DNA of 34,218 nucleotides from Bdellovibrionota bacterium (GTDB lineage: Bacteria; Bdellovibrionota_C; UBA2361; SZUA-149; DAOLCO01), in contig JBILFC010000001.1 in NCBI GenBank assembly GCA_044351785.1, forward strand, positions 1-34,218, in the 5' to 3' direction. Below, piece after piece: positions 1,743 through 26,763 of the stretch (position 1 is the stretch's first letter; each line of letters starts with the position of its first letter). Made by a program: the position numbers and the translations under genes. The notes below the pieces were generated by a model, which did no database searches, was not told where the DNA came from, and saw only the letters and a list, made by a program, of their open reading frames with translations.

Positions 1743-4700
1743 ATGCCAAGTTGTATTAGGCTCATCAGTACTCGTTTAATTCTATTATTGTCTTTGATGA
1801 CAATAAATAGCTTTAATGCTGTTGCTGAGGATCAAGAAGTTACTCTATTTAGTCGCACCTTAAAAAATGGTGAACTAAGAGGTGAATCAGCTTTACTTGA
1901 AAAACCAGAAAAGACAGCCGGGATTCTATCAAATTTAATCACTAACACTAAAGTTATAAAAGATAATGGCCCATCATCTAATCGAGTAGATTTAGTATTT
2001 TTAGGCGATGGATATACAACCGGTGACTCTTCAAAGTTCGATTCTCAAGTGGTAAGCATCTCTGATGGTTTATTCCAACAAATGCCATTAAGTGAATATA
2101 AAAACTATTTCAATCTACATCAAGTTTTCTCACCATCAGTTCAATCTGGTATAGACAATGATGGACAACTTGGAATAGATAAAAATACGGTGTTGAATGG
2201 TAAATTTTATTGCCAAGACGTAAAGGAAAATATCTGCGTAGATGTATCTATCGCCTGGGAACTTGCTGCTCAAGCAAGAGACTTTGATCAAATTTCAGTT
2301 TTAGTAAACTCTAGCTCTGATGGGGGAACTGCCTATCCATTTAGCGATATCTCAGTGGTACCAGGAGGAAACGGTCTAGTAGCTAGTAATCTTGCTCACC
2401 AAGTGGGACATAGCTTTGCTAATCTTGCAGATGAATATGACAATGGTAGTTGGCCTACCTACACTGGCTTTGAACCAGCAGAACCAAATGTTTCTGCTCA
2501 AAATACTGAAGCCATGCTCACACAAAAACTTAAATGGCATCAATGGCTAAGCATAGATTCTGGCGCTAACTTTGGTGGAATAATAAATACCTATGAAGGT
2601 GCAATGGGTCATAAATATTCAATTTATAGGCCAACTGAAAACTCTAAGATGAGGAATCTAAATGCTCCATTCAATAACCCATCTATAGAATCTTTTATTA
2701 AAGAAATCTATAAAAAGGTAAAACCTATTGATAATGCAACGTCAGTGGAAACTCCTCTTACTGGTTCATCAGTGATAAGCGTAACCCCCCTTCAACCAAT
2801 CGGTAGAAACTTAACAATTCAGTGGTATGTAGATAACACTCCTATAGCAGGGGCTAATGCTAAAACTTTTAGACCAAATGACTACCCTATAAGTGATGGT
2901 ATGCATGCAATCTCAGTAGAGGTTTCAGATGATACTCCACTTCTAAAAGACGAAGCCTTTAGAACACAGTACATGAAGGAAAAACGCACTTGGAATGTAC
3001 CTATTGATCAAAATGCACCCATCATCACAAAACATCCTGCAAGTGTTTCTGTATTTATTGGAGCGACAACCAATCTATCGGTAACTGCCATTGGCGAAGA
3101 TCTAAAATACCAATGGTTTAAAAACGGCGTTAAAATTGACGGCGCTACTCAAACATCATATTTGACTCCAGGAGCAATAAGAGAAAAAGCTGACTACTAC
3201 GTAGAAGTCTCCAATGTTCAAGGTACCTTAAGAAGCAATACAGCTACTGTAAGTATTAAAAATAGACTACCCGCATATTCAGGTAGCACTTCATTAACTC
3301 TTTCTAGATTAGAAGAAAAAGAAATTGCTTTTGAAATTAACGATGAAGATGGTGACTCTCTATCTTCAGTTTATACAATTGAAGCCGCGACTAATACTGG
3401 CGTAACAGTTTCATTAGCTTCCAAGAGCCTTAAAATTAAAGCTAGCTCTGCTTACCTAGGACAATTTAGTATAAAATTAAATTTTACTGATTCTTATGAC
3501 ACAATTTCTATACCAATCTCGGTGAACGTTGTTAATAATGCTCCGGTCATTGATGCCATAAATGATTTAACTAGACTATGGACTACTGATAAAGCATCGG
3601 TTGAAATACTTGCTAGTGATAATGACAGCATGGACACAGTCAGTCTCTCTGCTAATCTTGCTACAGGATTCTCAGCACCTGTCAGCCTATCTATGAATGG
3701 TAAAGTGCTAAATATCGATCCGCAAGCAGGTTACTATGGTAAATTTAATGTAACGGTTAGGGCGACGGATGGATTTACAAACACATTTAGAACATTTTCC
3801 GTAAACTGGGCAAATGATAGCCCTGTAATAGATCAGGTGGCACCAATCCGCTCGCATTACAAAGTAGATAAAATTATAGTACCGATAAATGCGACCGATC
3901 CTAATGGTGACACATTACAACTTTCTGCTTCTATTTTGCCTATAAATAACCTAGTTACAGCTAGCTTAAGTGGCAAGACTCTTACCATAGATCCTTCCCC
4001 TACATATAGAGGAGCTAGTACTCTTCGTGTTACAGCTAGTGATAGTGCTCTTAGTAGTGTCATGAATACTAGTCTAGAAATTTATAATAATGCTCCAGTT
4101 ATTGCTCCGATTTCTGCAACAAATGTTAATCAGAATAAAAAATCAGTATCAATACCTGTATCAATATCAGACCCCGATCCAGAAGATAGCGCTACTTTAA
4201 CAAGCAGCGTTAGACTTCTTACTTCTGGAGCAAGTGGTGTTCAGGTTAAATTAGAAAATAACAACCTAATAGTCGAATCTAGTCAAAACTTTTCCGTACC
4301 TCTGTTAGTAGAAGTAAAAGCTACCGATGGAGATTTAACAGCAGTAAGAAATGTTTATCTTAGTGTACTTAATACAGCTCCCTTACTAACTAATATAGAT
4401 GAACAATTTATTCATCCTATTAAAGAAGACATAAGAACCATAGATTTAATAGCAACAGACATAGATAATGATAGTATTACGTATACCGCGGAAGTAGTAA
4501 AACCCAATGCCAAAGCCCCTACCCTATCTGTTTCAGGAAATAAATTATCCATCAATACTATCAACGACTTTCTTGGATCATTCACAATCAGAGTTATCGC
4601 TAGTGATGGCTTAAGTGAAGTAGCAAAAACATTCAAAGTCACAACTTATAATACAGATCCCGAGTTAAATGCCATTTGTGATCGTTCTGCACCGGCAACG

Positions 4701-7700
4701 AAGTTTCCAATAGAAATCCCGCTAATCGCATCAGATCCTGACAAAGAAGACTTAACTTTTGAAGGAAAAATTGAAAGAAATTCTTTACCATTTTTACTAA
4801 AGGCTAAATATAACTTTGACGCTATCAGATTTAGACCTAGTAATGGTCTAGGATTAGGTGAAAAGTATGTCAGTGGTTACGAAACAGACCCAGATATTAA
4901 ATTCTGGTACTATATTCTTCCTAATGGGGACCTATATAGGTTAAATAAAACACATAAGGAAAGCCAGTTCCTCCTAAAATTACCTGCAGGATACTATGAA
5001 AATCCCGATATCCTAATAAATGGTGATATCTCTGGAACTATTCTCAATGCTTTCTCAATATCTTTTGAGGGAAGTAAGCTTAAAGTTGCGCTCTCAAGAG
5101 CAGTACAAGGATCTGTTCAAATAAGGGTTAGAGCTAAAGATTACTTCTCATTTAATGAAAAATCTTTCATTCTAACTGTAACAGAAGGAAGATTAAAATT
5201 AGATGATGTTCCCGACATGAACATCCATTGGAAGGAAGAACCACGATCTGGATCATTAATAGCTAAAGATCCAGTAACTGGCTTAACACCAGATGATATG
5301 AGCTACGATGTGGCAGAATTTGACGGTTCTCTTGCAAAAAGTCTAGATGACCAATACAATTTTCATGTATCAAGAAATGATCAATATGATGCACAGATTC
5401 CACCTGATAACTTCACAAATAGAGGTGAGAAATATATTAGAGCTTACAAGATTAGTTATTTAAACAATGTACCTTCATACGCAGGGATTGATGTATTTGC
5501 GATACTTCCAAATGGTGATTTATATTTATCTCCACCAAAGGCTCAAAATACACAATACTACAGTTTAGAAAATGCTACATTAATAGCAGAACTTGATAAA
5601 GTCTATTATAGAGATACATCTTTACTAATCAATGCAGCAAGTGGAGCGGGAACAAATCTTATTATAAACGGAGATAATACTAGCTTCACGGTGGAACAAA
5701 CTCCTGGATTCTTAGGGAAAGTCATCTTAGAAGCAAGAGCATGGAAAGGTATCGCCTCAGACAGTAAAACATTTATTGTTAACATATACGACAATGAACC
5801 TACGCTGAATGTTCCACTTAATTGTGATGAATTTGGCTGCAAGTTAATAAGAAACTGGAAAACAAACGAAATTAGGCTTCCAATCACCCTCAGTGACGTT
5901 GACCCACTTGATAGTGTAACTTCTAAGGCCTTTGAAACGGATCCTTCCTTAAACCCAGCTAATTCAGCTTCTGAATATTCCCTAAAGTGGAATCATAAGA
6001 ATGGCCAATTCGATAGAGATGGCTGGAGAGAAATACATTTTGCAGGAACTTATCAAAACTCAGAAACTGATATCGCTTTAACTACTGATGGGAAATTATA
6101 TAAATGGAATGGTAATCCACAGAATAGCATTCTATTAACTCAAGTTCCTAGTTCATTCCATGAGCTAGGATACACCTTAGATTCTTCTGTCAATACTTCT
6201 AAGCCTAGCTTGTTAAATCATCCCGAAGTAAGAGTTGAAGGCTCTGAATTAGTAATTACCCCTAAAGCAAATACAGTTATAAATTCCGGTATAATAGGAT
6301 GGGCAAGCGACGGAATGAAACGCGGATTCCTCAAATTCCCCGTATTCATAATTAATCAGCAACCTCAAATTGGAGCCATTGCAGATAAAACTGTTCACTG
6401 GAGAGACAACCTCATTACCGAGAATATCTTGGTTAGTGATCCAGATGGAGACACCGTTTCAAACTTGAATCTGACAATCAATCCTATTAGCATTGATCCA
6501 GCTATCGATTATAATCTAACTAACCTAGTTCTTACTTTAAAATCTAAATTTGGATATTTAGGAACCTATTCATCCACAATCTTTGTGACTGATCAGGGTA
6601 ATCTAAGCAGTGCTCGATCATTTAATACTACAGTCTTCAATACTGCTCCAGTTCTAGAATCTATCGGCAATAAAGATATTGATTGGAATATGAATACGTT
6701 AGAAATTCCATTCACGATGAGCGATGCAGATGCTAATGACTCCGATAAGTTAATATCTATGGTATTTAACGGATCTGCTTCTGACTTTACCGATTTCCTA
6801 GTAAATAAGCACAAGTTTACTAAAACTGGAGCAGGTGCTACCAATTCTCTTGGACTATCTGAAGTACACTTCAAAGGTACAGTAGAGAATCAAAGTAGAG
6901 AATTTATAGTATTGCCCTCAGAGGCTATCTACCTTGTGAGTGGTACTAATTTAGAGATTAAAGGATTCCTAGCACCTGGTACATACAGTAACCCTAACAG
7001 ACTATTAAGCATTGTTAATCCGAACTTTGCTCCAAAACATTCTGTAAGCACCGACGGAACAAAAATCATTTTAAGTAAATCATCAGGGCTAACTGAACCA
7101 ATCATAGTTACAGCTTGGGCAACTGACACGATTCAAGCTACTTCTGAAACATTTACAGTAAATATCATAGACAACGCTCCAGTATTACCAGAGCTAGCGA
7201 CAAGCTATGAAAGACATTGGAGACCAGGGCTACTAGAACTTCCTAATTTCCCTTCAATTGACGAAGAAGGTGAAACCATTAATTATCAAGTAACTTCAAG
7301 TCCAGCAGGATTACAACACTCTATTAGCTCTAGTATTCTTTCTGTAAAACCAACTAATGCTAATCAAATTGGAAATTACACTGTAAACATAGTAGCAACT
7401 TCAGGATCTAAATCTTCAAGCAAGTCCTTTAGCTATAACTTAACAAATGGTGCTCCATCAATTGCACCTCTAGGAGCACAGACCGTCGTTGGTTACAAAG
7501 AATCTTACTCTCAACCCTTTACCGCAACAGATCCAAATTCAGATCCTCTAACTTATACTACCAGCCTAGTAGGACCTTCACCATCTAACTTCTTAGTTGC
7601 TGTAGCTGGATCTACGATTAAAGTTTCTCCTAAAACTCCGCTAGCAGGTACTTACACTATAAACCTAAAAGCTTCAGATGGGCCTTCTTCAGCAGATGCT

Positions 7701-10700
7701 TCAACACAAATAATTTTCCAAAATAGAGCGCCAACATTTAATGTTCCGTCAGCGATGGATATCCCATGGAAAACAAAAGTGGGTAGTCAAACTCTAGTTT
7801 TCAGTGATCCTGATGATGACACTCTAACCTTGACCCCTACCATCAGTGATCCTACTGTAGCCACTGCTGTGATAAGCGGAAATAAAATAAATATCGATCT
7901 AAAGAAATATGCTCCAAGTTTTATAGTTAAAATAAGATTAAGCGATGGAGCTAACTCTATAGACAGAGAATTCCCTGTTTCAGTTAGCAATCTTAAACCA
8001 ACTCTAACAGGCTTACCACCAACTAAAGACATACACTGGAATACAAATTCATTTACGCAATCATTCACAGTAGCAGATGCAAACAATGACACTTTAACAG
8101 TTACATCTAAAATACTAAATAACACAGTTCCTGCTAGCGTAACTATTACAAATAGCCTCGCTACTATAGATGTTACAGAAAAGAAAATGGGCGAATTAAA
8201 CTTAAATATAAAAGTTGCTGACGATGTCTCAAGCACTGAAGGCAACATGAAAGTTACCTTTACTAATACAAAACCTAAAATCTCAGAAATTGCTAACCAA
8301 ATTATTTCAACTGGCATAGAAAAGACTCTTGAACTAGAAGCCTCAGACGCCAATAGTGATGAATTAACACTTTCCGCTATAAAAATGTCTTTGGAAGAAG
8401 TTGCGTTTGACCTAGATAAAATGTTTAACTTTGAACAAGGCGAAACCAACTTTGGATTTAATAAATTAGGTAATAACGAAAAATACCTAAGAGGTAGCGA
8501 TCCTGTAAGAAAAACTCCTCTTAATTTTGTTATCTATCCTAATGGCAGACTATATATCTGGACTGGAATATTAACGAATAGCACTTTTTTAGGAAGTATT
8601 CCTACCGAATTGCATGCCAACCCTACTCTCCTTATCAACGCTATTGCTCCAAATGCTTCAAATATTTCTTATACCGCAAGCATAACTGGTTCTACATTGA
8701 AATTAAAAGCAATTAACGACTTTGAAGGAACCTTCTGGATTAGAGCGGCAGCCACAGATACTCAAGAATTAGCACCAATGTATTTTAGAGTTAATTCCTA
8801 TAAGGAAGTTACTTCAGGTGGTGGCACTGATCCAAAAGAGTGCGAAACTAAAGAGACAGAACACGACGGAGAATGCAGTCAATCTGGGAAGTCAATGTTC
8901 ACTGCCGAAGGCAGAATAGGAGATACTGTGACTGGGGCAGGAAATAGAACTTTTGAATTAGATATTGGCAAAAGTACTAGTGGGCCTTTTGCTAGTGGAC
9001 AAACAAGTAATCATATTTGGGTAAGTGGAAAGAAAGAAAGCTTCTCAATAACTTTTGATCCAATTAATAAAGTATGTAATTTTGTATTAGGAGGGAAAAC
9101 CGTAGTATATAAAATTACAGAAGATGTATTCTCTCTTAGTGACATTTTAATAAGAACTAGACGAGGGAATACTCAGTCCAGTATGAAAATTGATTCTCTA
9201 AAAATCAATGGTAAAACAATTTCTAATTCCGTGTACGCTGATGGGAATTCTAACCAAGTGCGAACTCTACAAATTCGTTCAGTGAAGGAACTAAAGGATA
9301 AATTCACCTTAGAGGGTGCTGCTACTATGATATTCTCCTCTGATGTGAAGAATTCAGAACTTGCATTCCAAATATCCTTTACGAAATCAGACAATGCGCC
9401 TGAGACTTGTGAAGATAGCGATGAAGATGATCATGATGACGACGATTCAGATCACGATGATGAAGACGATAATGATGACGATGATTCTAACTCCAGAAAA
9501 GTAAAAATATGTCATTATCCTCCAGGAAATACCTCTAACCCACAGACAATTACTGTTTCTAAGTCTTCATTATCAGCTCACTTAGCACACGGCGATGTGA
9601 TTGGAGAATGTCCAGGCGATCCTCAAGATCCAGGCACGGGTGAAATTTCATGCGAAGCTAAGCAGTTGTTTGCTAGCCCTAACTACACTCTTTGGAATAG
9701 CTTCTTAAATATGATCAATATTCTAGAATTGACTAACTCTACAGCTAACCCAATTCCAGTGAAGATCTCCTTCTTCTCAATATTAGGTGAGCTTGCACAT
9801 GAAAGAACAATAGTTGTCCCAGCGACTAACCAGTTCGACGTTATTATCAATGATTTCCCTGGATTCGTGAAAGATTCCTATGGTGTTGTAAAACTCGAGT
9901 TTACTGGAAATCTTGATGGTAGAATGAGTTTCTATAGACCTACAACTGGTCTTACTTCTTATGACTATGCATATTCAATTCCTTTAGCTGATGCGAATTT
10001 TGGAACAACTGCAATAAGTTTCAATACCTTCCAACCAAGTCAAAAGCCTTCTGAGCTTAATAACTTAGTAGCTAACTGGTTAAGTATAGTAAATCTTGAT
10101 TCAGCGACACAAAAATATAGTGTCTTCACTTATGATATGTCTGGAAAACTTATTCTTAGAAGAGAGCTTGAAATTCCTTCATTCGGAAGAGCCGATGTCG
10201 ATGGTGGCCATGGTCTTGCAGGCCCTAATGTAGTCGGTTACCATAAGGTTATCCCCTACAATGTGACAGCGGAATACATCGCTCAAATAACTAGATTCGG
10301 TGGGAATGCTGCTGCTGGATTTGCCCCTTCAGCATATAAATTTGCCTTCCCATTATCCGCTAAGCTTGGTGCAAGCGATCCTATTTATGTTCCAATTTCG
10401 AATAAATTCGGGGAATCAAATTGGATAGAAGTTGTAAATATTCTTGATCAAACAGTACAAGCTGCAATCAACTACTACTCAATTGATGGTAGGTTACTTG
10501 AATCTGCAGATGCTTACATCCCAGGGAATGCTCAAATACATTTTAATGCTAGTGCTCAATTAGCAAGTGGAGAGACTGGTTATGCCGTAGTCGTTCCAAG
10601 CACTCCATATTCAATTGTTGCTCAAAGTATGGGTTACCTTAGAGAGCAAGCAACTGGCAGCGTAACTTCAGTTTATGGATCTCAAGCTAGAAGAGCTGTA

Positions 10701-11027
10701 CCTTGTGTTCAATCTGGCGCTTACAACTTATATCTAAATATGCAAAACTGGTTACTAGTTGCAAATACTACTAATGACACTATAAAAGCCGTGGTAAAAT
10801 TCACTGGACCTAATCTAGCTAGCCAGAAGTCCCTAACCCTCGCTCCTAGGGCATCTGTTTACCTACCAATTCATGGCAATACGGAAATTGGTGCTAAAGC
10901 AGATACTTATGGACTCATCGCGGTATATCCCGAGGATTCTTCTCTAAGATTATTCTCCGAAGTTATGAGACTTAAGTATAAGGCTGATGGTTCACCTGAC
11001 TTCTCAATGCCAGTCCCAGTTAGATAA
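1743..11027 (+). CDS. Giant (3,094 aa) secreted mosaic surface protein with an M64-like domain carrying HQVGH, Ig-like domain, 15 cadherin-like repeats and a composite C-terminal region
   Basis: Single uninterrupted ORF starting 15 nt after the S8 stop. N-terminal signal peptide (LILLLSLMTINSFNAVA/ED). M64 signature RVDLVFLGDGYT ... LVNSSSDGG ... AHQVGHSFANLADEYD. Ig-like segment KYQWFKNGVKIDGATQTSY...YYVEVSNVQG (~3015-3260). Repeats carry [ST]D[PA][DN]xDxL motifs (3261-8803). C-terminal modules occupy 8804-11024. Confidence 0.9.
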   Translation: MPSCIRLISTRLILLLSLMTINSFNAVAEDQEVTLFSRTLKNGELRGESALLEKPEKTAGILSNLITNTKVIKDNGPSSNRVDLVFLGDGYTTGDSSKFDSQVVSISDGLFQQMPLSEYKNYFNLHQVFSPSVQSGIDNDGQLGIDKNTVLNGKFYCQDVKENICVDVSIAWELAAQARDFDQISVLVNSSSDGGTAYPFSDISVVPGGNGLVASNLAHQVGHSFANLADEYDNGSWPTYTGFEPAEPNVSAQNTEAMLTQKLKWHQWLSIDSGANFGGIINTYEGAMGHKYSIYRPTENSKMRNLNAPFNNPSIESFIKEIYKKVKPIDNATSVETPLTGSSVISVTPLQPIGRNLTIQWYVDNTPIAGANAKTFRPNDYPISDGMHAISVEVSDDTPLLKDEAFRTQYMKEKRTWNVPIDQNAPIITKHPASVSVFIGATTNLSVTAIGEDLKYQWFKNGVKIDGATQTSYLTPGAIREKADYYVEVSNVQGTLRSNTATVSIKNRLPAYSGSTSLTLSRLEEKEIAFEINDEDGDSLSSVYTIEAATNTGVTVSLASKSLKIKASSAYLGQFSIKLNFTDSYDTISIPISVNVVNNAPVIDAINDLTRLWTTDKASVEILASDNDSMDTVSLSANLATGFSAPVSLSMNGKVLNIDPQAGYYGKFNVTVRATDGFTNTFRTFSVNWANDSPVIDQVAPIRSHYKVDKIIVPINATDPNGDTLQLSASILPINNLVTASLSGKTLTIDPSPTYRGASTLRVTASDSALSSVMNTSLEIYNNAPVIAPISATNVNQNKKSVSIPVSISDPDPEDSATLTSSVRLLTSGASGVQVKLENNNLIVESSQNFSVPLLVEVKATDGDLTAVRNVYLSVLNTAPLLTNIDEQFIHPIKEDIRTIDLIATDIDNDSITYTAEVVKPNAKAPTLSVSGNKLSINTINDFLGSFTIRVIASDGLSEVAKTFKVTTYNTDPELNAICDRSAPATKFPIEIPLIASDPDKEDLTFEGKIERNSLPFLLKAKYNFDAIRFRPSNGLGLGEKYVSGYETDPDIKFWYYILPNGDLYRLNKTHKESQFLLKLPAGYYENPDILINGDISGTILNAFSISFEGSKLKVALSRAVQGSVQIRVRAKDYFSFNEKSFILTVTEGRLKLDDVPDMNIHWKEEPRSGSLIAKDPVTGLTPDDMSYDVAEFDGSLAKSLDDQYNFHVSRNDQYDAQIPPDNFTNRGEKYIRAYKISYLNNVPSYAGIDVFAILPNGDLYLSPPKAQNTQYYSLENATLIAELDKVYYRDTSLLINAASGAGTNLIINGDNTSFTVEQTPGFLGKVILEARAWKGIASDSKTFIVNIYDNEPTLNVPLNCDEFGCKLIRNWKTNEIRLPITLSDVDPLDSVTSKAFETDPSLNPANSASEYSLKWNHKNGQFDRDGWREIHFAGTYQNSETDIALTTDGKLYKWNGNPQNSILLTQVPSSFHELGYTLDSSVNTSKPSLLNHPEVRVEGSELVITPKANTVINSGIIGWASDGMKRGFLKFPVFIINQQPQIGAIADKTVHWRDNLITENILVSDPDGDTVSNLNLTINPISIDPAIDYNLTNLVLTLKSKFGYLGTYSSTIFVTDQGNLSSARSFNTTVFNTAPVLESIGNKDIDWNMNTLEIPFTMSDADANDSDKLISMVFNGSASDFTDFLVNKHKFTKTGAGATNSLGLSEVHFKGTVENQSREFIVLPSEAIYLVSGTNLEIKGFLAPGTYSNPNRLLSIVNPNFAPKHSVSTDGTKIILSKSSGLTEPIIVTAWATDTIQATSETFTVNIIDNAPVLPELATSYERHWRPGLLELPNFPSIDEEGETINYQVTSSPAGLQHSISSSILSVKPTNANQIGNYTVNIVATSGSKSSSKSFSYNLTNGAPSIAPLGAQTVVGYKESYSQPFTATDPNSDPLTYTTSLVGPSPSNFLVAVAGSTIKVSPKTPLAGTYTINLKASDGPSSADASTQIIFQNRAPTFNVPSAMDIPWKTKVGSQTLVFSDPDDDTLTLTPTISDPTVATAVISGNKINIDLKKYAPSFIVKIRLSDGANSIDREFPVSVSNLKPTLTGLPPTKDIHWNTNSFTQSFTVADANNDTLTVTSKILNNTVPASVTITNSLATIDVTEKKMGELNLNIKVADDVSSTEGNMKVTFTNTKPKISEIANQIISTGIEKTLELEASDANSDELTLSAIKMSLEEVAFDLDKMFNFEQGETNFGFNKLGNNEKYLRGSDPVRKTPLNFVIYPNGRLYIWTGILTNSTFLGSIPTELHANPTLLINAIAPNASNISYTASITGSTLKLKAINDFEGTFWIRAAATDTQELAPMYFRVNSYKEVTSGGGTDPKECETKETEHDGECSQSGKSMFTAEGRIGDTVTGAGNRTFELDIGKSTSGPFASGQTSNHIWVSGKKESFSITFDPINKVCNFVLGGKTVVYKITEDVFSLSDILIRTRRGNTQSSMKIDSLKINGKTISNSVYADGNSNQVRTLQIRSVKELKDKFTLEGAATMIFSSDVKNSELAFQISFTKSDNAPETCEDSDEDDHDDDDSDHDDEDDNDDDDSNSRKVKICHYPPGNTSNPQTITVSKSSLSAHLAHGDVIGECPGDPQDPGTGEISCEAKQLFASPNYTLWNSFLNMINILELTNSTANPIPVKISFFSILGELAHERTIVVPATNQFDVIINDFPGFVKDSYGVVKLEFTGNLDGRMSFYRPTTGLTSYDYAYSIPLADANFGTTAISFNTFQPSQKPSELNNLVANWLSIVNLDSATQKYSVFTYDMSGKLILRRELEIPSFGRADVDGGHGLAGPNVVGYHKVIPYNVTAEYIAQITRFGGNAAAGFAPSAYKFAFPLSAKLGASDPIYVPISNKFGESNWIEVVNILDQTVQAAINYYSIDGRLLESADAYIPGNAQIHFNASAQLASGETGYAVVVPSTPYSIVAQSMGYLREQATGSVTSVYGSQARRAVPCVQSGAYNLYLNMQNWLLVANTTNDTIKAVVKFTGPNLASQKSLTLAPRASVYLPIHGNTEIGAKADTYGLIAVYPEDSSLRLFSEVMRLKYKADGSPDFSMPVPVR
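3261..8803 (+). repeat. Array of 15 diverged ~90-aa cadherin-like/Ig-like repeats inside the giant CDS; five carry a roughly 75-100 aa insert
   Basis: Recurrent unit boundaries N[NTD]APV[IL]. Acidic motifs SDNDSMD, TDPNGDTL, SDPDPEDS, TDIDNDSI, SDPDKEDL, SDPDGDTV, SDADANDS, TDPNSDPL, SDPDDDTL, ADANNDTL, SDANSDEL. Each unit closes with ...G.F.i.v.a.Dg. The repeats are conserved at protein level only, with no long identical DNA blocks seen. Confidence 0.8.
9411..9485 (+). repeat. GAT/GAC/GAA-rich low-complexity tract encoding EDSDEDDHDDDDSDHDDEDDNDDDD
   Basis: Read codon by codon from 9411: 25 consecutive codons, of which 21 encode D or E, interspersed with H, S and N. Confidence 0.9.
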
Positions 11028-13231: not shown

Positions 13232-15679
13232 ATGAAAGTAATCAAGTTTGGTGGCTCTTCCATATCTTCAGCGGAGAATATCACAAAGGTCATAAAGATC
13301 ATTGAATCTGATCTAAGAAAAGGAAGATGTACACTAATCTTCTCAGCCTTTCAAGGCATCACTAACTCACTCTTTAAAGCTGCGGATTTAGCAAAGTCTC
13401 AGAACCAAGAATATTTAAAAGTCATAAAAGACTTAGAAGAAAGACACATCTTAGTCGCAAAAACTCTAATCCCAGAAAAGAATGTAGGAATTACACTTAA
13501 CTTCATAAATGAAAGGTTAAAAGAACTCTATGACATCCACCACGGAGTATTTCTTGTAAAAGAATGTACGCCGAAAATAATGGACTACATAGCTAGTTTC
13601 GGTGAACGACTTTCGACCTATATCATCTCAGAGGTTATTAAAGCAGAAGGTTATGAAGTAAACTACCTAGACGCTAGAGAAGTTATAAAAACAAATAATG
13701 CTTTTGGCAGTGCTCAAGTAGACTTCGCAACAACAAATACTCTTATTACATCCTATTTTAAAAATAATAACGGCATTAAAGTAGCAACAGGATATATTGC
13801 AAGCACTAAAGATGGCGAGACTACGACTCTTGGTAGAAATGGATCAGATTATTCTGGAGCTATTTTCGCAGGTGCATTAAATGCTGAAAGTCTTGAAATC
13901 TGGACTGACACCTCCGGCATCATGACCGCAGATCCAAGGCTCGTATATAAAGCTTTTACTATTCCGCAGCTCACATACAATGAGGCGATGGAGCTATCTC
14001 ACTTCGGGGCCAAGGTACTATTCCCAGCGAGCATGCAACCCGTAATGAAGCAGGGTATTCCGGTTTATATAAAAAACACCTTTGCCCCAGAGCATACAGG
14101 TTCATTGGTAAGTAATAAATCACAAAGCCCTGGATTAATTAAAGGTATATCTTCGCTTACTGATATCTGTTTAATTAACATTCAGGGTACTGCACTCATG
14201 GAAGTTGTTGGCATGAGCAGGAGATTCTTTGGAGCGCTCGCTGATAGTCAAGTAAATATAATTCTAATCAGTCAGGCTTCTTCAGAACACAGTATTTGCG
14301 TTGCAATATCGGGTAAAGACTCAGAGCGTGCAGTTAAGGCCATTGAAATAGAATTTGCAAATGAGATCTCAGCTGGTTCTATGGACCCAGTAATGGTTAA
14401 ACAAAATATGGCTGTTGTTTCCATAGTTGGGGAGAACATGCGTCAGCATCCAGGCTCTAGTGGAAGAATGTTCCAAGCACTAGGAAGAAATAATGTAAAT
14501 GTTTTTGCTATTGCTCAAGGTAGCTCCGAATTAAATATTTCAGCTGTAGTTTCCAATGACGATCATCAAAAAGCCCTTAATGCTTTACATGAGGCTTTTT
14601 TCCTCTCTGAATTTAAAGTACTACACATGTTTCTGATTGGTAAAGGCTTAATAGGTTCAGCTCTTCTAAAGATGATTGGCGAACAATTAAACAAGCTAAA
14701 AGCAGAACAAAACCTTGAAATTCAAATTCATGGCATCGCAAACTCCAGATTTATGTTGTTTAACGAAGATGGCTTTAACCTAAATGATGATTTAACTTTA
14801 GATAGTTCCGCTGAACAATATCAATTAAATAAATTTCTTAGAAGAATGTTTGAAATGAACTTTTCAAACTCCGTACTAGTTGATTGTACTTCAAGTGAGG
14901 AAGTCGCTGAATCTTATGAGTCCATACTAGAAGCTAACATTTCTATTGTTACTCCTAATAAAAAGGCTAATTCTGGCTCATATGAAAGGTTTGAAAAATT
15001 ACATAATATCGCCTTAAAACGAGGCTGTAGATTCCTATACGAAACGAATGTCGCAGCAGGACTTCCTGTTATTAGCACTCTTCAAGATTTAGTCTTAAGT
15101 GGAGATAAAATTAGAAAAATTGAAGGGGTCTTAAGTGGTTCTGTAAATTTTATCTTTTCTAATTTTGAAAACGGAAAACTATTTAGTGATATCGTAAAGC
15201 AAGCGAAAGAAAAGGGATATACAGAGCCTGACCCTAGAGATGATCTAAGTGGCATGGATGTAGCTAGGAAAATTTTAATCCTAGCTAGAGTAGCTGGGGT
15301 AAAACTTCACTTGGAGGACATTTCTATTAATAGCCTTGTACCGAAAGAAGCTGAAAGCGCATCTACTTATAAGGAATTCATGAGCATACTTTCAGCCCAT
15401 GATAACTCTTTTACCTCACTTTTAGCAGACGCTAGTAGTAAGAATGAAAAACTTAGATTTGTAGCTAGTCTTGAAAATGGCCATGCTAATGTTAAGCTAA
15501 AAACCGTAGACTCCGCACATCCTTTCTATTCATTAAAGGGCAGTGACAATATGATTTTATTCACGACAGAAAGATATAGCGAGTTTCCAATGGTAATTCG
15601 AGGTCCTGGGGCTGGGGCAGAAGTAACCGCTGCGGGAGTATTTGCAGATATTATAAGAGTGGGAAATTATCTAAGATAG
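13232..15679 (+). CDS. thrA: Bifunctional aspartokinase / homoserine dehydrogenase
   Basis: N-terminus MKVIKFGGSS with the kinase motifs TLGRNGSDYSGA and DPR. ACT-type regulatory region (VSIVGENM..., NISAVV). C-terminal homoserine dehydrogenase motifs (LIGKGLIGSALL, YETNVAAGLPVI, GVLSGSVNFIF, EPDPRDDLSGMDVARK). Confidence 0.95.
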   Translation: MKVIKFGGSSISSAENITKVIKIIESDLRKGRCTLIFSAFQGITNSLFKAADLAKSQNQEYLKVIKDLEERHILVAKTLIPEKNVGITLNFINERLKELYDIHHGVFLVKECTPKIMDYIASFGERLSTYIISEVIKAEGYEVNYLDAREVIKTNNAFGSAQVDFATTNTLITSYFKNNNGIKVATGYIASTKDGETTTLGRNGSDYSGAIFAGALNAESLEIWTDTSGIMTADPRLVYKAFTIPQLTYNEAMELSHFGAKVLFPASMQPVMKQGIPVYIKNTFAPEHTGSLVSNKSQSPGLIKGISSLTDICLINIQGTALMEVVGMSRRFFGALADSQVNIILISQASSEHSICVAISGKDSERAVKAIEIEFANEISAGSMDPVMVKQNMAVVSIVGENMRQHPGSSGRMFQALGRNNVNVFAIAQGSSELNISAVVSNDDHQKALNALHEAFFLSEFKVLHMFLIGKGLIGSALLKMIGEQLNKLKAEQNLEIQIHGIANSRFMLFNEDGFNLNDDLTLDSSAEQYQLNKFLRRMFEMNFSNSVLVDCTSSEEVAESYESILEANISIVTPNKKANSGSYERFEKLHNIALKRGCRFLYETNVAAGLPVISTLQDLVLSGDKIRKIEGVLSGSVNFIFSNFENGKLFSDIVKQAKEKGYTEPDPRDDLSGMDVARKILILARVAGVKLHLEDISINSLVPKEAESASTYKEFMSILSAHDNSFTSLLADASSKNEKLRFVASLENGHANVKLKTVDSAHPFYSLKGSDNMILFTTERYSEFPMVIRGPGAGAEVTAAGVFADIIRVGNYLR

Positions 15680-16249
15680 TTGAGAAGGAATAGCTTCAAA
15701 CATTAAAAATGCTACTCTAACTTCCTGAGACCTTTTATCTGGGTGAATTTTACTAAAAATACTCTTGGCCTCTTCCCTTTTATCCTCAGCCAAATAAGAT
15801 GACCCTATTAACTCCAACCTAAGTATCTCTAGGTAACTTTTGGCACTAGAATCTGGCTTACTTAACAAATCTTCAAAGTTTTGCTGATTAATTTTTTCAT
15901 ACTGTTTTCTAAGAAAGTCTAAACTTAGACTCAACGTATTGATTGCTGATTGATCATAGGATAACACTCTCAAAGCTTCTATTGAGATCTCTAATACACC
16001 CAAATAGTAAGCATCTTTGGTATCTAGATAAGACTCGTAAGCTAATAAACCTAAAATGAAATGAGCTTTACCCCAAGCTGGCCTTAGCTTCAAAAGCAAC
16101 CTTATGTTTTTAGTAATAGAGGCAGAATTCTTTAGTTTGTCTTGTAAGTTCAAAGTTCTTCTAAATTCACTAGATGAGATATATAGCTTTAAAAGAGCGA
16201 TATAAAATTTCAAATTAGATCTAATTAATTTATTTAGATATCTATACAT
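15671..16249 (-). CDS. Hypothetical helical (TPR-like) protein (192 aa)
   Basis: ORF with helical-repeat-like composition. Its start overlaps the hpt stop by 8 nt (operon-like), and its 3' end overlaps the convergent thrA stop by 9 nt. No specific family recognised. Confidence 0.5.
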   Translation of the reverse strand: MYRYLNKLIRSNLKFYIALLKLYISSSEFRRTLNLQDKLKNSASITKNIRLLLKLRPAWGKAHFILGLLAYESYLDTKDAYYLGVLEISIEALRVLSYDQSAINTLSLSLDFLRKQYEKINQQNFEDLLSKPDSSAKSYLEILRLELIGSSYLAEDKREEAKSIFSKIHPDKRSQEVRVAFLMFEAIPSQLS

Positions 16250-16808
16250 CAGATCGAACTATCTCATATACGGCAGGGACATTTCGAAACTGATCTTTAT
16301 CATCTAAACCGTAACCCACTAACCAATCTTCAGTTAACAACTTAAAACAATAAAAGTCAGGGCAGAAAGTTGATCTAGGTATATCTCTATAAACCAATGA
16401 AGCAGTCTTTACTGTTCTTGCTCCCAGATTAAGACATTCTTTCTTTAACAAAGAAAATAATCTTCCTGATTCGCAGATATCATCAATTATTAAAACAGCT
16501 CTGCCGTTAAGATCCATCGGTAAATGCAATTTAGATAATGCCGCATCTGGTAATTGTTGATTATTAGAAGGGTCGTAAGTGTTATATCGTACGAATTCGA
16601 TATCTAAGCTAGAATTTATAGCCCTAGTCAGATCAGCGAAAAAGAATACCGCACCTCGCAGTACACATAAAGCAATTGGATCATCAGAAGAAATACTTCT
16701 TTCTGCTTCAACCCATGCTTTAACATCTAGGGCAATCTCCCCTATTCTTTTCGCAATCTGGCCTTCATCGAATAAAAGTTTATAGTGAGAAGGAAGCTGA
16801 AATGACAT
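16242..16808 (-). CDS. hpt: Hypoxanthine(-guanine) phosphoribosyltransferase
   Basis: Collinear with HPRTs: LRGAVFFFADLTRAI, PRPP-binding VLIIDDICESGRLF, C-terminal WLVGYGLDDKDQFRNVP. Confidence 0.85.
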   Translation of the reverse strand: MSFQLPSHYKLLFDEGQIAKRIGEIALDVKAWVEAERSISSDDPIALCVLRGAVFFFADLTRAINSSLDIEFVRYNTYDPSNNQQLPDAALSKLHLPMDLNGRAVLIIDDICESGRLFSLLKKECLNLGARTVKTASLVYRDIPRSTFCPDFYCFKLLTEDWLVGYGLDDKDQFRNVPAVYEIVRSDV

Positions 16809-16822
16809 TTTTTAATTGAAGA

Positions 16823-17122
16823 CTATAGTGAGTCTAGAGCATTCTTAAGGCTACCATTTGCTCTCACGTCAGATCTCTCTGAACGAATTCCGAAGCTAGC
16901 ATTTCTATTGTCTCTATATTTATCATAATCTAGAAGTTTTACGCCGGCGATATTAACTTCTCCATTACTTTGATACATCCAGTTATCAATTCTAGCTAAA
17001 GTAGAAACAAATAAAGGGCCAAGAACTAAGACTGACGCAAACCAAAATACAGCCCAGCTCTGTGTCTTAGACCATGAACTGCATTCATTCTTCTCTAAAG
17101 TATTGTGGGATGAGTGCGACAT
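16823..17122 (-). CDS. Hypothetical single-pass membrane protein (99 aa)
   Basis: ORF with one hydrophobic helix (WAVFWFASVLVLGPLFVSTL), on the same strand as hpt and 14 nt from it. Confidence 0.45.
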   Translation of the reverse strand: MSHSSHNTLEKNECSSWSKTQSWAVFWFASVLVLGPLFVSTLARIDNWMYQSNGEVNIAGVKLLDYDKYRDNRNASFGIRSERSDVRANGSLKNALDSL

Positions 17123-17196
17123 AAAAACTCTTAAAATTTATAACTTGTAATAATTCTCAGTAGTTTTTATACAATTAAAGCCTAGTAAGCAATCTA

Positions 17197-17421
17197 CTAA
17201 TGGGAAGTCTGCACCCAATCAAAGTTAGCAATATCTGGGAAATGCTCTTTTAACTCCAAGAGGAGCTTATCTCTTCGGGCCAACTTATTATCGAGTAATT
17301 CTGTCAAGACTTCATCCTCATCCGCCCAACGACTCCACAGTAACTGAAGAGCAGCAGTTTCCACCAAAGCCTTTAAAAAGAACTCCATCTTTCTTTCATC
17401 AGTATTTACCTTAGATGCCAT
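17197..17421 (-). CDS. Hypothetical small acidic protein (74 aa)
   Basis: ORF only; no recognisable motif. Confidence 0.4.
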   Translation of the reverse strand: MASKVNTDERKMEFFLKALVETAALQLLWSRWADEDEVLTELLDNKLARRDKLLLELKEHFPDIANFDWVQTSH

Positions 17422-17652
17422 ATCACTTAGCCCCTATTATAATTAACCATATAATTAGGATGAAGGTTGGGGGATGAGGGTTTCAAAAGAGGGGAATGGT
17501 TGAAACTTTACTTTAAGTGCATTAAAGTAAGAGGGATTACATGGGCTCTGAGGCCGGGTCGGAGATAAATTAAAATTCAGAAAATAAACCTAAATGTCGA
17601 AAAAGACTTAGGTAATAAATTTACTCCTGCAAGACCTTCAACAGTTCCTAAC

Positions 17653-19100: not shown

Positions 19101-19882
19101 TGAGACCAATCCTAAGCTATTGCACAAAATCTATTAAAACACCGATGTGGCTATTTATAACTTTCTTGATATCGCTAAGGATTTTATGGATTACATTTAA
19201 AGAAGCGCATGAAATAATAAAATCTTTCATGGTAGATTCAAAGATAGAATATGAGATCGCTGAATACCTACTTATCCAAACTTTATATCAATCTGAAATA
19301 TACTTATTAGGTATTAGCATAATCTATTCTGAAATCATAGAAACAGACCGGAAATCAGGAATCCTACCTCTCCTAGTTACTCGCACAGAGAGATGGAAAT
19401 ATATAATTGGAACTTGGTTATCAATTCCTGCCGCTGTCATCACAATCAATATATTTGCATTAGCGGGCATCTATTCTACACTAATTCAACTAGATCTACC
19501 CTTAAGTACAGCATATCTGTTCGCTTCTATAAGACTAATAATTCCTATTGTAATACTTCATAGCATTCTATTCTGCTGGAACAGCTACTTTAGATTAAAA
19601 ACCTCTTTTACACTCATTATCTTGCTTTCCATTTCAAGTAGCATCTTGACGGTAGTTGAATCCCTCCGTGAAACTTTTGTAACTAAAGTTCTTAATTTTA
19701 TAGAATTTACCCTTGTTTATTTGCTACCGTCCTTAACATTTTTAGCATCACCAAATGATCTTAACTGGTTAAGCACTCAACAATTTTTCTTTATCTATTT
19801 AGATAATCTTTCATATCTTGCGCTGGTCTTATTTATATTCTGCGGGATATTCAAAAGCGTAGACCTCGGAACGAAGTCGTAG
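19100..19882 (+). CDS. Polytopic membrane protein, probable ABC-2-type permease partner
   Basis: TAATG stop/start overlap with the ATPase gene. About six hydrophobic segments. No specific family recognised. Confidence 0.65.
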   Translation: MRPILSYCTKSIKTPMWLFITFLISLRILWITFKEAHEIIKSFMVDSKIEYEIAEYLLIQTLYQSEIYLLGISIIYSEIIETDRKSGILPLLVTRTERWKYIIGTWLSIPAAVITINIFALAGIYSTLIQLDLPLSTAYLFASIRLIIPIVILHSILFCWNSYFRLKTSFTLIILLSISSSILTVVESLRETFVTKVLNFIEFTLVYLLPSLTFLASPNDLNWLSTQQFFFIYLDNLSYLALVLFIFCGIFKSVDLGTKS

Positions 19883-19958
19883 CTTGTAACTACGTACCAT
19901 AAATACGAGCCTACCTACTTTTTAACTAACACTACTAATACCCCTGTACACATCGACA

Positions 19959-20219
19959 TTACATCATCACAGGAGCCTTAGTTACCAGTTCAAGATCTAA
20001 GTCTCCATTTGCAACTGATAATAGCCACAAAGTATCTCCTTCCGAATCGCAACATTCAAGTTCATATCCCAACTGATCCTTGTAAACCATCACAACCCTC
20101 GCATGATCACCTACCACCGGTGGTCGTTTACTTATTCCATCACCGACTAAATTAATTCTTTTGTTAATTTTATTAATACGAACAATATCGTACTCATTAA
20201 ATTTTAAATAATTATCCAT
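19959..20219 (-). CDS. DUF4926-like small protein (86 aa)
   Basis: Pattern FNEYDIVRI...VVGDHARVVMVY...GYELECCDSEGDTLWLLSV resembles the small SH3-like DUF4926 family. Assigned by recollection only. Confidence 0.5.
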   Translation of the reverse strand: MDNYLKFNEYDIVRINKINKRINLVGDGISKRPPVVGDHARVVMVYKDQLGYELECCDSEGDTLWLLSVANGDLDLELVTKAPVMM

Positions 20220-20229
20220 AAGATTAAAA

Positions 20230-20346
20230 TCATCTCGCCGCAGTTACTTCAAAAGCTACATCCAATCCCAAATGTAACTTACCGACAGGCACCACCCCAC
20301 GCGCTGGTTTATGATCTCCAAAAAATTCGGCATATTTCTCATTCAC
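20230..20346 (-). pseudogene. ridA: 3' relic of a ridA (YjgF/RidA family) gene; only the last ~38 codons remain
   Basis: The minus-strand translation VNEKYAEFFGDHKPARGVVPVGKLHLGLDVAFEVTAAR* matches the RidA C-terminus (compare B. subtilis YabJ ...[36 protein letters not shown]). It starts in frame immediately after the TAG stop of the AAA ATPase gene, and the N-terminal ~90 codons are absent. Confidence 0.6.
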
Positions 20347-21594
20347 CTACCTACAATACTCATAGGCCGGTATCATTAAAATAGTCTGCTTACCAGAACC
20401 CTTAACTCCCCCTGATTCATTTGCAGTAACAATGGTTAACTTAGCCTCCGAGAACTTAGTGCTAGCAATCTCTAACGCACGAACTTCTCGCTCTTTTGTT
20501 TCCATATCAGAGATATTTAAACATACTTGTATTAACTGTGAAGTCACATGACCATCTCTCACCAGAAAATCAATTTCCTTTCCATCATCTAAGCGGTGAT
20601 AGAAAATAGAAGAATCACTTTTATAACCACTCCTTCTAAGATGCAAATATACTGAATTTTCTAATTGCTTGCCAAGCACAGGTAGGGAACTTAAATTCAG
20701 TGCACTAATTATCCCAGTATCTATGAGATACGGCTTACGCTCCCCCTTAATCCTTTCTTTTATCTTGTGAGAAAAGTTATGAGTGGTTTCTACTAAGTAG
20801 GCTTCTTCCATAAATCGCAGATAGTTTTCTATGGTTGTTGCGCTAGGCGTTGAATCTAAAGCCTTAGATAATGCTCGAGCACTGGTTCGAGCTGAAACAT
20901 TACCCACTATTAAAGACAACGTATTAGTTAAATAAAAAGGATTACGAATTTTTTTCCTTCGCACTAGATCCTTCAAAATTACAGAATCATATAAAGCTTT
21001 TAAATATGTCTTATAATCTACCGAAGGTTCAAACAATACTTCAGGATACCCACCCCGCTCCAGATAAAACTGATAACTGTCCCATGATCTCTGCCGATTG
21101 GTCGCATCAATATATTCTGTATAGGAAAATGGAAGTAGCTCTATCGCAATATGTCGACCAGTAAGTGCGGTCGCCAACTCAGATCCCAGAAGCTTTGCAT
21201 TCGATCCAGTAATAACTAAGTTATATCCCCGTCTGTGGAGTTTATTTATCAGTGTCTCCCATTCAGGAAAATCTTGTATCTCATCTAGATACCAATACTG
21301 CGCGTCCGGATAAATCTCATGAGCAGTATCAATTATTGAATCTCCTGAAGATTTCTGAAACAACTCTTCTTCAAAATTCAGATAAGCAATTTTTTTATCT
21401 TCTAATATCTTCTGAATGAGCCTAGACTTACCTGCCCTCCTTGGACCTAGGACAATTTTTATCAATGAATTATCAAGCGCCTCAACCAACTCAGCTTCTT
21501 TGGTCCTTATAAAATACTTTTTCTTTGCGAAGCTCAGGAATTCCTGCTTTTGCTTTGAAAGAATGTCTGAAAGTGAGTAAGTAGTTGTAATCAT
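20347..21594 (-). CDS. AAA+ ATPase of the COG1373 / DUF4143 type (415 aa)
   Basis: Walker A GPRRAGKS, Walker B YWYLDEIQ, and a C-terminal region typical of the AAA_14 + DUF4143 architecture (by recollection). Confidence 0.8.
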   Translation of the reverse strand: MITTTYSLSDILSKQKQEFLSFAKKKYFIRTKEAELVEALDNSLIKIVLGPRRAGKSRLIQKILEDKKIAYLNFEEELFQKSSGDSIIDTAHEIYPDAQYWYLDEIQDFPEWETLINKLHRRGYNLVITGSNAKLLGSELATALTGRHIAIELLPFSYTEYIDATNRQRSWDSYQFYLERGGYPEVLFEPSVDYKTYLKALYDSVILKDLVRRKKIRNPFYLTNTLSLIVGNVSARTSARALSKALDSTPSATTIENYLRFMEEAYLVETTHNFSHKIKERIKGERKPYLIDTGIISALNLSSLPVLGKQLENSVYLHLRRSGYKSDSSIFYHRLDDGKEIDFLVRDGHVTSQLIQVCLNISDMETKEREVRALEIASTKFSEAKLTIVTANESGGVKGSGKQTILMIPAYEYCR

Positions 21595-21622
21595 TAAATC
21601 CAGTGCTAACTAATATACTCTA

Positions 21623-21654
21623 TACTTAGCAGATTTGCCCAAATCTGCCAAGTA
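21623..21654 (-). promoter_or_regulatory. Imperfect 14-bp inverted repeat just upstream of the ATPase start; possible operator
   Basis: TACTTAGCAGATTT-GCCC-AAATCTGCCAAGTA (one mismatch) lies 29 nt upstream of the ATG at 21594. A related direct copy ATACTTAGCACATAGCAGAT sits at 21663-21682. Confidence 0.3.
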
Positions 21655-21723
21655 GAAAGATTCATACTTAGCACATAGCAGATCGTAAAAATCAAGTAAT
21701 TAAGACTGAATAAGATGAAAAAT

Positions 21724-21759
21724 CAGCCTATTATTGCTTTATAAATCAATAATAGGCTG
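21724..21759 (-). terminator. Stem-loop with a T-run on the minus strand, downstream of the brnA-like gene
   Basis: CAGCCTATTATT-(12 nt)-AATAATAGGCTG. On the minus strand it is followed by ATTTTTCAT. Confidence 0.45.
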
Positions 21760-22212: not shown

Positions 22213-22301
22213 AAAGCGACACCATGCTTCTTTAAGCTACTATATTCTTTGACTAAGTCCAATTCTAATGAAAGCCCTTGCCTAAATCCATATTCATACA
22301 T
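22209..22301 (-). pseudogene. 30-codon stub resembling the N-terminus of a BrnT (DUF497) toxin, ending in an ATGA overlap with the brnA-like start
   Basis: Minus-strand ORF MYEYGFRQGLSLELDLVKEYSSLKKHGVAL*. LELDLVKEYSSLKKHGVAL resembles the BrnT N-terminal signature FEWD..K...N..KHGVSF. The remaining ~60 residues of a normal BrnT are missing. Confidence 0.3.
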
Positions 22302-25809: not shown

Positions 25810-26763
25810 CTAGAATCCGCTATACCCAGAACACTCTCCTTGATAACTCACATTAATACCGGCCTCTGTAGCTTTACACTCATTAAAATAGGTCTGTGCA
25901 TTTGCGCCACATACCGGTGCATATACTCGAGAGCATGTCGGAGCCCCACATTCACCCTCGTATAATACTGTAGTTCCAGCTGCTCTAGCATAGCAAGTGT
26001 TACCATAAGTTTCACCATCTGCACCACAGACAGGCACAAATTCCTGCGAACAGATAGGAGCAGGGGCAGACTCCTGTCTGCAAATCCCTTGATGAGCGAC
26101 TCCCACCCCCGCTTCGGCAGCATGACAATAACTATCATATGTTTTGCCATCGACACCGCAAACCTTTCCAATAACTTGTATACAGTAAGGCCCATCAGTT
26201 GACTCCTGCTTGCACTCACCTTCATAAGAGACAGTAGCGCCAGCATTTTTAGCTTCACAAGAATTACTATAGGTCTTACCATCTGTCCCACAAACAGGCT
26301 TAATCCACTGTGGGCATATATCAGATCCTCCCGTGCTAGGAGAATCTGGCCTTTTACTATTATCAATATTATTATCCACACTCGTACGTACATCTTCAGG
26401 CGTTTTTCCTACTACCACATCTATCTGAGCTGGTTTTGAATTATCAACTAAATTTGTTACAGATACAGTTGTGTTTACAGCAGGACCATTAAATATAATT
26501 ACTGCCTCTTGACCTACCTCACTAGCAATCTCAAATTTGCCCTCAGAATCTGTAATAGTAGTATCGCCAGTTTCTTCGACCGTAACGGAAACATTAGGTA
26601 TCGGCTTTTGATTAGAATCTACGACAGTCCCTTCAAATTGTCTTAAATTTACAGACGTATTATCTCCACCCGTCCCAGAAGTACCACCTCCACATGCCAT
26701 GATTGACACAATTAAAAACCCTAAAAATACTTTGGAACAAACCTTACCAACAAAACAATTCAT
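25810..26763 (-). CDS. Lipoprotein with a CarboxypepD_reg-like beta-sandwich and four tandem atypical Kazal-like protease-inhibitor domains
   Basis: Lipobox SIMAC (Cys24). FEGTVVDSNQKPIPNVSVTVEETGDTTITDSEGKFEI matches the carboxypeptidase-regulatory-like pattern. There are four copies of C-x7-C-G-x-D/N-G/A-x-T-Y-x3-C-x-A-x2-A-G-x9-C. Confidence 0.85.
   Translation of the reverse strand: MNCFVGKVCSKVFLGFLIVSIMACGGGTSGTGGDNTSVNLRQFEGTVVDSNQKPIPNVSVTVEETGDTTITDSEGKFEIASEVGQEAVIIFNGPAVNTTVSVTNLVDNSKPAQIDVVVGKTPEDVRTSVDNNIDNSKRPDSPSTGGSDICPQWIKPVCGTDGKTYSNSCEAKNAGATVSYEGECKQESTDGPYCIQVIGKVCGVDGKTYDSYCHAAEAGVGVAHQGICRQESAPAPICSQEFVPVCGADGETYGNTCYARAAGTTVLYEGECGAPTCSRVYAPVCGANAQTYFNECKATEAGINVSYQGECSGYSGF
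25831..26316 (-). repeat. Four Kazal-like units (aa 150-184, 194-228, 238-272, 276-311)
   Basis: CPQWIKPVCGTDGKTYSNSCEAKNAGATVSYEGEC; CIQVIGKVCGVDGKTYDSYCHAAEAGVGVAHQGIC; CSQEFVPVCGADGETYGNTCYARAAGTTVLYEGEC; CSRVYAPVCGANAQTYFNECKATEAGINVSYQGEC. Period is 44/44/38 aa. Confidence 0.85.

Follow-up and report, generated by a model that had tools for sequence, protein, structure and literature searches.

The window, a 34,218-bp stretch that makes up the whole of contig C256 in a Bdellovibrionota metagenome-assembled genome (MAG; 3.0 Mb, 371 contigs, 82% complete), carries on its minus strand an intact ATPase gene with AAA_14 and DUF4143 domains (20347..21594, 415 aa), followed by a short relic of a ridA-family gene (20230..20346), a 10-nt spacer, TTTTAATCTT (20220..20229), and a DUF4926-like gene of 86 aa (19959..20219). 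The relic, which corresponds to ridA codons 92-129 and the TGA stop, is very probably the dead 3' remnant of a spare ridA gene that was joined to a unit carrying the ATPase gene by illegitimate recombination at a microhomology. The locus was compared with 30 other genomes of the order, among them the same-genus genome G001, and with four further contigs: L052 (Logan, SRR27426722), L053 (SRR30545107), L054 (SRR26425193) and L055 (Logan, SRR26192775; 1,194 bp). L055 was reached through the protein cluster of DUF4926, and L053 and L054 through the 90% protein cluster of the ATPase. The nearest named relative of the source MAG is an uncultured Bdellovibrionales MAG.

The ridA relic and its intact counterparts

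The reading frame of the relic opens with a GTG codon (20346..20344) directly 3' of the ATPase stop codon TAG (20349..20347), in the same frame, and continues through 38 open codons to the TGA at 20232..20230, exactly as the first-pass annotation had placed it. Its peptide, VNEKYAEFFGDHKPARGVVPVGKLHLGLDVAFEVTAAR, was searched with hidden Markov models and matches the C-terminal ends of Pfam Ribonuc_L-PSP (PF01042; positions 82-120 of 121, E 1e-3, 19.5 bits against a cut-off of 27.3) and of NCBIfam TIGR00004 (positions 88-124 of 125, E 1e-4, 22.6 bits against a cut-off of 106.25). A relative with an intact ridA beside the DUF4926-like gene, which the same annotation had proposed to look for, was found in L055, where the RidA protein is 129 aa long and scores 109.5 bits on TIGR00004. 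In a BLAST alignment, positions 593-969 of L055 match 20348..19972 of the window at 96% nucleotide identity (E 1.5e-177), a range that covers the last 38 ridA codons, the stop codon, the spacer, which is identical in both, and the DUF4926 gene. The intact orthologue in G001, also of 129 aa, shares 33 of the 38 C-terminal residues with the relic; the nucleotide homology between them (72–74%) extends from about 20346-20357 only as far as the stop codon. Collinear identity with L055 and G001 marks the relic as a descendant of a bona fide RidA gene, and the match lies far beyond chance; the reading of the peptide as the last ~38 residues of a RidA protein stands.

Codons 1-91 of ridA have no match by tblastn anywhere in the 82%-complete assembly, in keeping with the ~90 codons thought to be missing; one tblastn alignment that extended into the ATPase C-terminus was dismissed as noise, with about 18% identity outside the relic. 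The relic lacks a promoter of its own as well as the first 91 codons, and, measured against a full-length RidA-family protein (about 125 aa, scoring above the curated cut-off), it falls short where the L055 allele does not. It does retain an HKPARG stretch, whose arginine may correspond to the catalytic residue of the Salmonella and Escherichia coli RidA proteins. With 38 of 129 residues left, the relic is a fragment of a RidA-family gene rather than a member of the family, and should be unable to function as one. In an annotation, 20230..20346 is better marked as a pseudogene fragment than called as a small open reading frame (ORF).

The gene that was broken is not the housekeeping ridA. Contig C132 carries an intact, better-scoring RidA of the canonical type (126 aa; TIGR00004 score 143 bits), and C309 a third, weak homologue. 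The G001 orthologue of the relic is only about 33% identical to the C132 protein, and, of the order's 30 other genomes, only G001 and G026 have the paralogue that it represents in intact form (the G026 gene being 67% identical to that of G001). In G001 it adjoins hemF, in the company of a nucleotidyltransferase fragment, and the hemF locus of genome G000 is without it. When this RidA paralogue was scanned against the genome collection, the closest relative was 50% identical, besides G001's own gene (100%). Since the stronger-scoring C132 copy is intact and the distribution in the order is patchy, the lost gene is a second, accessory RidA copy, and probably a dispensable one. The proposal that ATPase-containing DNA displaced part of a housekeeping gene is therefore right about the truncation of ridA at the ATPase junction, and wrong about the housekeeping role. 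The relic itself matters little, being a recently truncated spare gene in a genome that keeps a RidA with a stronger family score.

The substitution record of the relic bears on its age. In the comparison with G001, differences occupy 22 of 26 synonymous sites (proportion of differing synonymous sites, pS, 0.85) and 9 of 88 nonsynonymous sites (pN 0.10), and three of the five amino-acid differences match the state in G026. Against the intact L055 allele there are five differences in 117 nt, three nonsynonymous and two synonymous, giving a pN/pS of 0.46; the values for the neighbouring genes are 0.06 (ATPase), 0.10 (brnA) and 0.13 (DUF4926), and by Fisher's test the relic differs with p 0.05 from the ATPase and 0.075 from the pooled neighbours. 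ridA was accordingly under purifying selection for nearly all its history, and the contrast with L055, though small in counts, agrees with a truncation that is recent and a loosening of constraint since then.

The junction with the ATPase gene

The recombination junction was placed at 20340..20348 of the minus strand by a three-way comparison of L053, L055 and the window and by the overlapping extents of the BLAST alignments, in which homology to the ATPase unit reaches 20341 and homology to ridA begins at 20348. Written from the ATPase side, with a slash after the third codon, the window reads TGT AGG TAG / GTG AAT GAG AAA TAT, and the intact ridA of L055 reads TGG GCA GAG / GTG AAT AAG AAA TAT; the ATPase unit ends in TGT AGG TAG / GTGAATATTTAAGTTTGTCCC in L053 and in TGT AGT TAG / GTTGGTTTAGCTTTGTCCCC in L054. 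The three forms thus compare as TAG followed by GTGAATATTTAAG (L053), GAG followed by GTGAATAAGAAA (L055) and TAG followed by GTGAATGAGAAA (window). The octamer AGGTGAAT (20348..20341) is common to the native 3' tail of the ATPase unit and to ridA codons 91-93, and the window passes from one partner to the other precisely within AGGTGAATA, which both carry, and keeps eight of its nine bases. The ninth, at 20340, is a G where both parental forms have A, a later Lys-to-Glu change. That GTGAATA is the unit's own 3' tail follows from the tails of L053 and L054, which align past the stop codon (TTTA[A/G] and on to TTTGTCCC): GTGAATA-TTTAAG in L053 is aligned to GTTGG-TTTAGC in L054.

A rough calculation puts the chance of at least eight shared bases at a random join at about 1e-4 or less. 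The junction is a genuine breakpoint of a rearrangement and is located to 8-9 nt, which bears out the earlier expectation that the boundary could be placed to a few nucleotides. The TAG stop of the ATPase overlies the ridA codon GAG (Glu91), which accounts for both the zero spacing and the shared frame, and the in-frame layout without a spacer is best read as a by-product of the microhomology and not as a sign of fusion. The fragmentation and incompleteness of the MAG might raise the suspicion that the junction is an assembly chimera, a reading to which we give practically no weight. L052, a Logan assembly made independently from a different run, matches the window at 100% over 21581..19498 (2,084 bp) and spans the junction. 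A 24,346-bp contig of the Joint Genome Institute, present in two samples, agrees with the window in gene order and in the 127 nt that separate the ATPase gene from DUF4926; moreover, the partners share only 8-9 nt, which is too short for a k-mer join by the assembler.

The following course of events is consistent with this evidence. Originally, a second, dispensable RidA-family gene would have been paired with the DUF4926 gene. A self-contained 1.34-kb unit, made of an operator-like promoter region and the PDC-S01-type ATPase gene, would then have come to lie upstream of ridA, and the DNA between them would have been lost by illegitimate recombination at the 8-9-nt microhomology, one copy of which lay just after the ATPase stop and the other at ridA codons 91-93. 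The loss would comprise the ~20-nt 3' tail of the unit, any intervening sequence and ridA codons 1-91, with TAG taking the place of GAG so that the relic begins in frame without a spacer. The route may have been a deletion between short direct repeats after the unit had landed or a one-step integration anchored at the microhomology, and the remnant left behind is presumably non-functional. Some observations weigh against this reconstruction. The unit upstream of a full ridA, the intermediate of the two-step route, was found in no haplotype, which leaves deletion and one-step integration indistinguishable; for the microhomology, a single relative, L053 (95% identical), supplies the 3' tail, and L054 supports AGGT only; the substitution contrast comes down to five changes; and the relic has neither an internal stop nor a frameshift and starts with GTG, so that its translation is conceivable.

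The last of these points leads to a different view of the relic, and the present transcription of the locus has to be considered with it. The DUF4926 gene (PF16277, 26.8 bits against a gathering cut-off of 29.1, E 3.4e-6) is the original downstream partner of ridA, as the pair in L055 indicates. None of the order's 30 other genomes has it, and a metagenome scan with its protein gave one irrelevant 30-residue match. No terminator-like site was found on the minus strand between the ATPase and DUF4926 genes and the ridA promoter has been lost, so the DUF4926 gene is probably co-transcribed with the ATPase gene from the operator-controlled ATPase promoter. A strong hairpin with a T-run (21759..21724) closes the brnA unit upstream.

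Under such an arrangement, the relic could have been kept as a working relay ORF, with ribosomes restarting at the GTG after the TAG, reading the 38 codons, halting 10 nt short of the DUF4926 ATG and so coupling translation of DUF4926 to that of the ATPase. The GTG directly after the TAG, the 38 open codons, the spacer of the same 10 nt as in the intact allele, the lack of a terminator-like site and the fact that no Shine-Dalgarno-like sequence was seen before DUF4926 all accord with it. We nevertheless consider it to have a slim chance of being right: the microhomology fully explains both frame and spacing, the pN/pS of the relic is above that of its neighbours, and the truncated form turned up in no second lineage. 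An open frame is expected even without selection in a relic as young as this one, given its few differences from the intact allele.

A portable ATPase unit in a variable hotspot

The ATPase gene is intact and matches AAA_14 (6e-29, 101 bits) and DUF4143 (3.5e-21, 76 bits) in Pfam, and the PDC-S01 model PDLC04787 of PADLOC over its full length (1e-95, residues 26-413). An AAA_14 P-loop domain precedes DUF4143, with a Walker A motif GPRRAGKS and a Walker B-like motif YLDEIQ, and by this architecture the protein belongs to PDC-S01/COG1373, as a candidate single-gene defence system. Its C-terminus, PAYEYCR, is the native one, since the orthologues in G001, L053 and L054 end alike. The PD-(D/E)XK signature (D...E-x-K) is not preserved: at residues ~345-368 the motif is E(I/V)DF...QV(C/S) in the ATPase, in its orthologues and in the three paralogues nearest to it, whereas in an alignment of paralogues the distant copies of the same genome read EIDL...IEIK. 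In the clade of this ATPase, the site for nuclease activity may be changed or inactive. The genome holds 13 matches to the family, with 24–37% identity.

About 93 nt upstream of the ATPase ATG (21595..21687, minus strand) form a promoter- or operator-like region, recognised by conservation and by an inverted repeat (I1), with four half-sites of ~10 bp in alternating orientation, GTGCTAAGTA, TACTTGGCAG, CTGCTAAGTA and TAGTTAGCAC (consensus xTGCTAAGTA). The region is kept upstream of the orthologues in G001, G002, G005, L053 and L054, and the half-sites recur in six orthologous contexts, whereas the DNA farther upstream differs; the region resembles an operator carried along with its gene. Among the half-sites is a promoter-like hexamer pair (21641..21612), although the number of such pairs in the region is not above chance. 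A sigma-54 reading of TGGCAG...GGGCAA in the operator region, made by eye, was abandoned because the spacing is off by one and the motif is not conserved in the orthologues. Together, the gene and the ~93 nt of upstream repeats make a discrete unit of 1.34 kb with sharp edges of homology, 95% identical to L053 over 21687..20341 of the window and 87% identical to L054 over 21677..20345.

In the first-pass annotation the ATPase was placed on an acquired segment, and this is not borne out. The four related genomes G001, G002, G005 and G007 carry orthologues with 83%, 68%, 65% and 57% amino-acid identity, a divergence that resembles that of core genes, so the ATPase is not shown to be foreign; it has instead been relocated within a hypervariable hotspot. 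The unit is set in different surroundings in each of five relatives compared, and the neighbours differ for each of these four orthologues; in G001 the unit adjoins tmk, and the tmk locus of G000 is without it. An empty site for the unit was sought through the flanks of L054, which have no synteny to offer, as their matches are split over three different G000 contigs at 64–75% identity. Nor can an empty site be drawn from species representatives, because the DUF808 and ABC-permease neighbours of the window are not conserved in genomes of the same genus and family.

The hotspot itself is a variable islet rich in toxin-antitoxin remnants. L053 shares with the window the DUF808 gene, a brnT-like stub with brnA, and, downstream, a 4.3-kb block (17555..13289), at 86–92% identity, and belongs to the same DUF808...AK-HSDH hotspot. 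The window runs DUF808, brnT'-brnA, ATPase unit, 'ridA, DUF4926, ABC operon, right block, and L053 runs DUF808, hipBA, ATPase unit, a 44-aa ORF, brnT'-brnA, right block; the ATPase unit has accordingly changed sides relative to brnTA. In the third haplotype, L055, the ridA-DUF4926 pair comes after the end of a beta-propeller gene, which in L053 lies ahead of DUF808. Only 377 nt of DNA are common to the window and the intact allele of L055, for which no longer contig is on record, and the two DUF4926 genes diverge over their last ~6 codons (LVTKAPVMM and stop in the window, 19959-19975; LVDRAPAGI and stop in L055, 966-982). As the homology with L055 stops there, a second breakpoint lies near 19972, inside the 3' end of the DUF4926 gene. 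The intergenic pieces of the islet do not recur elsewhere in the genome. Taken together, the relic and the three alternative haplotypes map, to the nucleotide, the shuffling of a PDC-S01 promoter-plus-gene unit in one hotspot.

Several further features of the islet were recorded. A 30-codon ORF (22209-22301, minus strand) has a TGA that overlaps the ATG of the CopG/BrnA-like antitoxin gene (21934-22212, minus strand). It was taken for a BrnT N-terminal stub (LKKHGV), an impression only, with no Pfam match at E ≤ 0.1. Stub and antitoxin are 90.5% conserved in L053 (6490-6911), which dates the truncation of the stub before the strain split, and the pN/pS of brnA indicates purifying selection. 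The redoxin-like/ABC ATPase/permease operon (17556-19958) is variable hotspot content: it is absent from L053, in which 36 nt separate brnA from the right-hand block, and five same-family genomes yielded no match to its permease. Three sites on G001:C36 match the stretch 19901-19929 of the window. In L053 the ATPase unit is followed immediately by the 44-aa ORF (6291-6425, minus strand), which begins MHKKRKPIIGVMGPGEE, has no Pfam match and resembles the N-terminal stub of a longer gene, possibly another relic beside the unit. A ~65-nt repeat 3' of DUF4926 in L055 (1031-1094) recurs at 83% identity on several contigs of G000 (C296:10836-10900, C168:4845-4909, C100:42-106, C33:20-84), two of the copies at contig ends, and this dispersed repeat probably breaks the assembly. 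Farther away, the window holds an apparently intact pair of a PIN_3 toxin and a DUF6364/CcdA-like antitoxin (31019-31683, minus strand).

A hairpin-like motif, TAGGC-CTCAGA-GCCTA (core GGCCTC[AG]G[AC]G), stands at module boundaries of the hotspot in three haplotypes: at 21771 and 17555 (minus strand) in the window, at ~4890 and 6948 in L053 and at ~1003 in L055. A further copy, at C370:12726 of G000, lies just downstream of another ATPase paralogue. The motif may mark a hot spot of recombination, or these may be no more than hairpins between genes.

Such boundaries raise the question of a dedicated mechanism, in which the unit would move by site-specific or nuclease-driven events, through its own PD-(D/E)XK-like domain or a recombinase encoded elsewhere and acting at GGCCTCAGAG hairpins, and the break in ridA would be an insertion scar. 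The ends of the unit are the same in at least three contexts, the 13 paralogues lie in a genome of 3.0 Mb, and the core motif occurs 12 times in the genome against ~4 expected; yet no copy of the motif stands upstream of the unit in L054 or G001, just three genome copies lie within three mismatches of the 18-mer consensus, and the ExK catalytic motif reads QVC in the clade of this ATPase. The junction bears the signature of microhomology and has no conserved att core. Target-site duplications or att-like repeats, which the first-pass annotation had proposed to look for at ~20346 and between 21595 and 22445, were not found there beyond chance. No recombinase or insertion sequence (IS) was found in the 28 ORFs scanned with Pfam, as the first-pass annotation had also noted; these include all but four of the non-overlapping ORFs of at least 80 aa (3..1727, 1743..11027, 13232..15679 and 25810..26763 lie outside the scan). 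The attributes of an IS, a transposon or an integron cassette are missing, with no transposase or integrase in the scanned ORFs, no terminal inverted repeats, no target duplication and, beyond chance, no flanking repeats in direct or inverted orientation. Dedicated movement is, on balance, quite improbable. It is likewise a long shot that the 1.34-kb unit is an autonomous single-gene mobile element that changes place within a genome and from one genome to another without a conventional recombinase, and of which the ridA stub is one insertion scar; such an element could draw on its degenerate PD-(D/E)XK domain or on the hairpins at module boundaries, and, if real, would give the very abundant, uncharacterised PDC-S01/COG1373 family a selfish-element biology.

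Illegitimate recombination at the microhomology is the best account of the locus: this is an ordinary pseudogene relic in a variable hotspot, well resolved and not surprising.

Comparison with known systems

The relic belongs by descent to the RidA/YjgF/UK114 family (PF01042, TIGR00004), 2-iminobutanoate/2-iminopropanoate deaminases, with which it shares the KPAR stretch; it differs in deriving from a patchily distributed second copy and not from the canonical-type RidA. Gene remnants can arise by deletion between short repeats or by homology-facilitated illegitimate recombination, the latter described for naturally transformable bacteria. The junction of the window is of the same kind, abrupt, inside an 8-9-nt identity and with one partner truncated, and, like those remnants, it comes without a recombinase (in the scanned ORFs), terminal repeats or a target duplication; here, however, the intermediate and any homologous anchor were not observed.

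With integron gene cassettes the ATPase unit has in common that it carries a single gene, has reproducible ends and varies in order and position within one hotspot across strains. It differs from them in having its own promoter/operator region and a microhomology junction instead of a conserved core site, and no attC-like site, integrase or attI was seen at this locus.

The ATPase gene has its counterpart in the PDC-S01 family, described as a very common candidate defence gene that was identified by "guilt by embedding" and combines an ATPase with a PD-(D/E)XK-superfamily domain (PMC12988326); DUF4143 corresponds to COG1373 (PMC3424549). According to the same review, validation is pending for most such defence candidates (PMC12988326). 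The gene studied here has the same single-gene architecture and many divergent paralogues in its genome, and it sits, as that family does, among toxin-antitoxin remnants in a variable hotspot.

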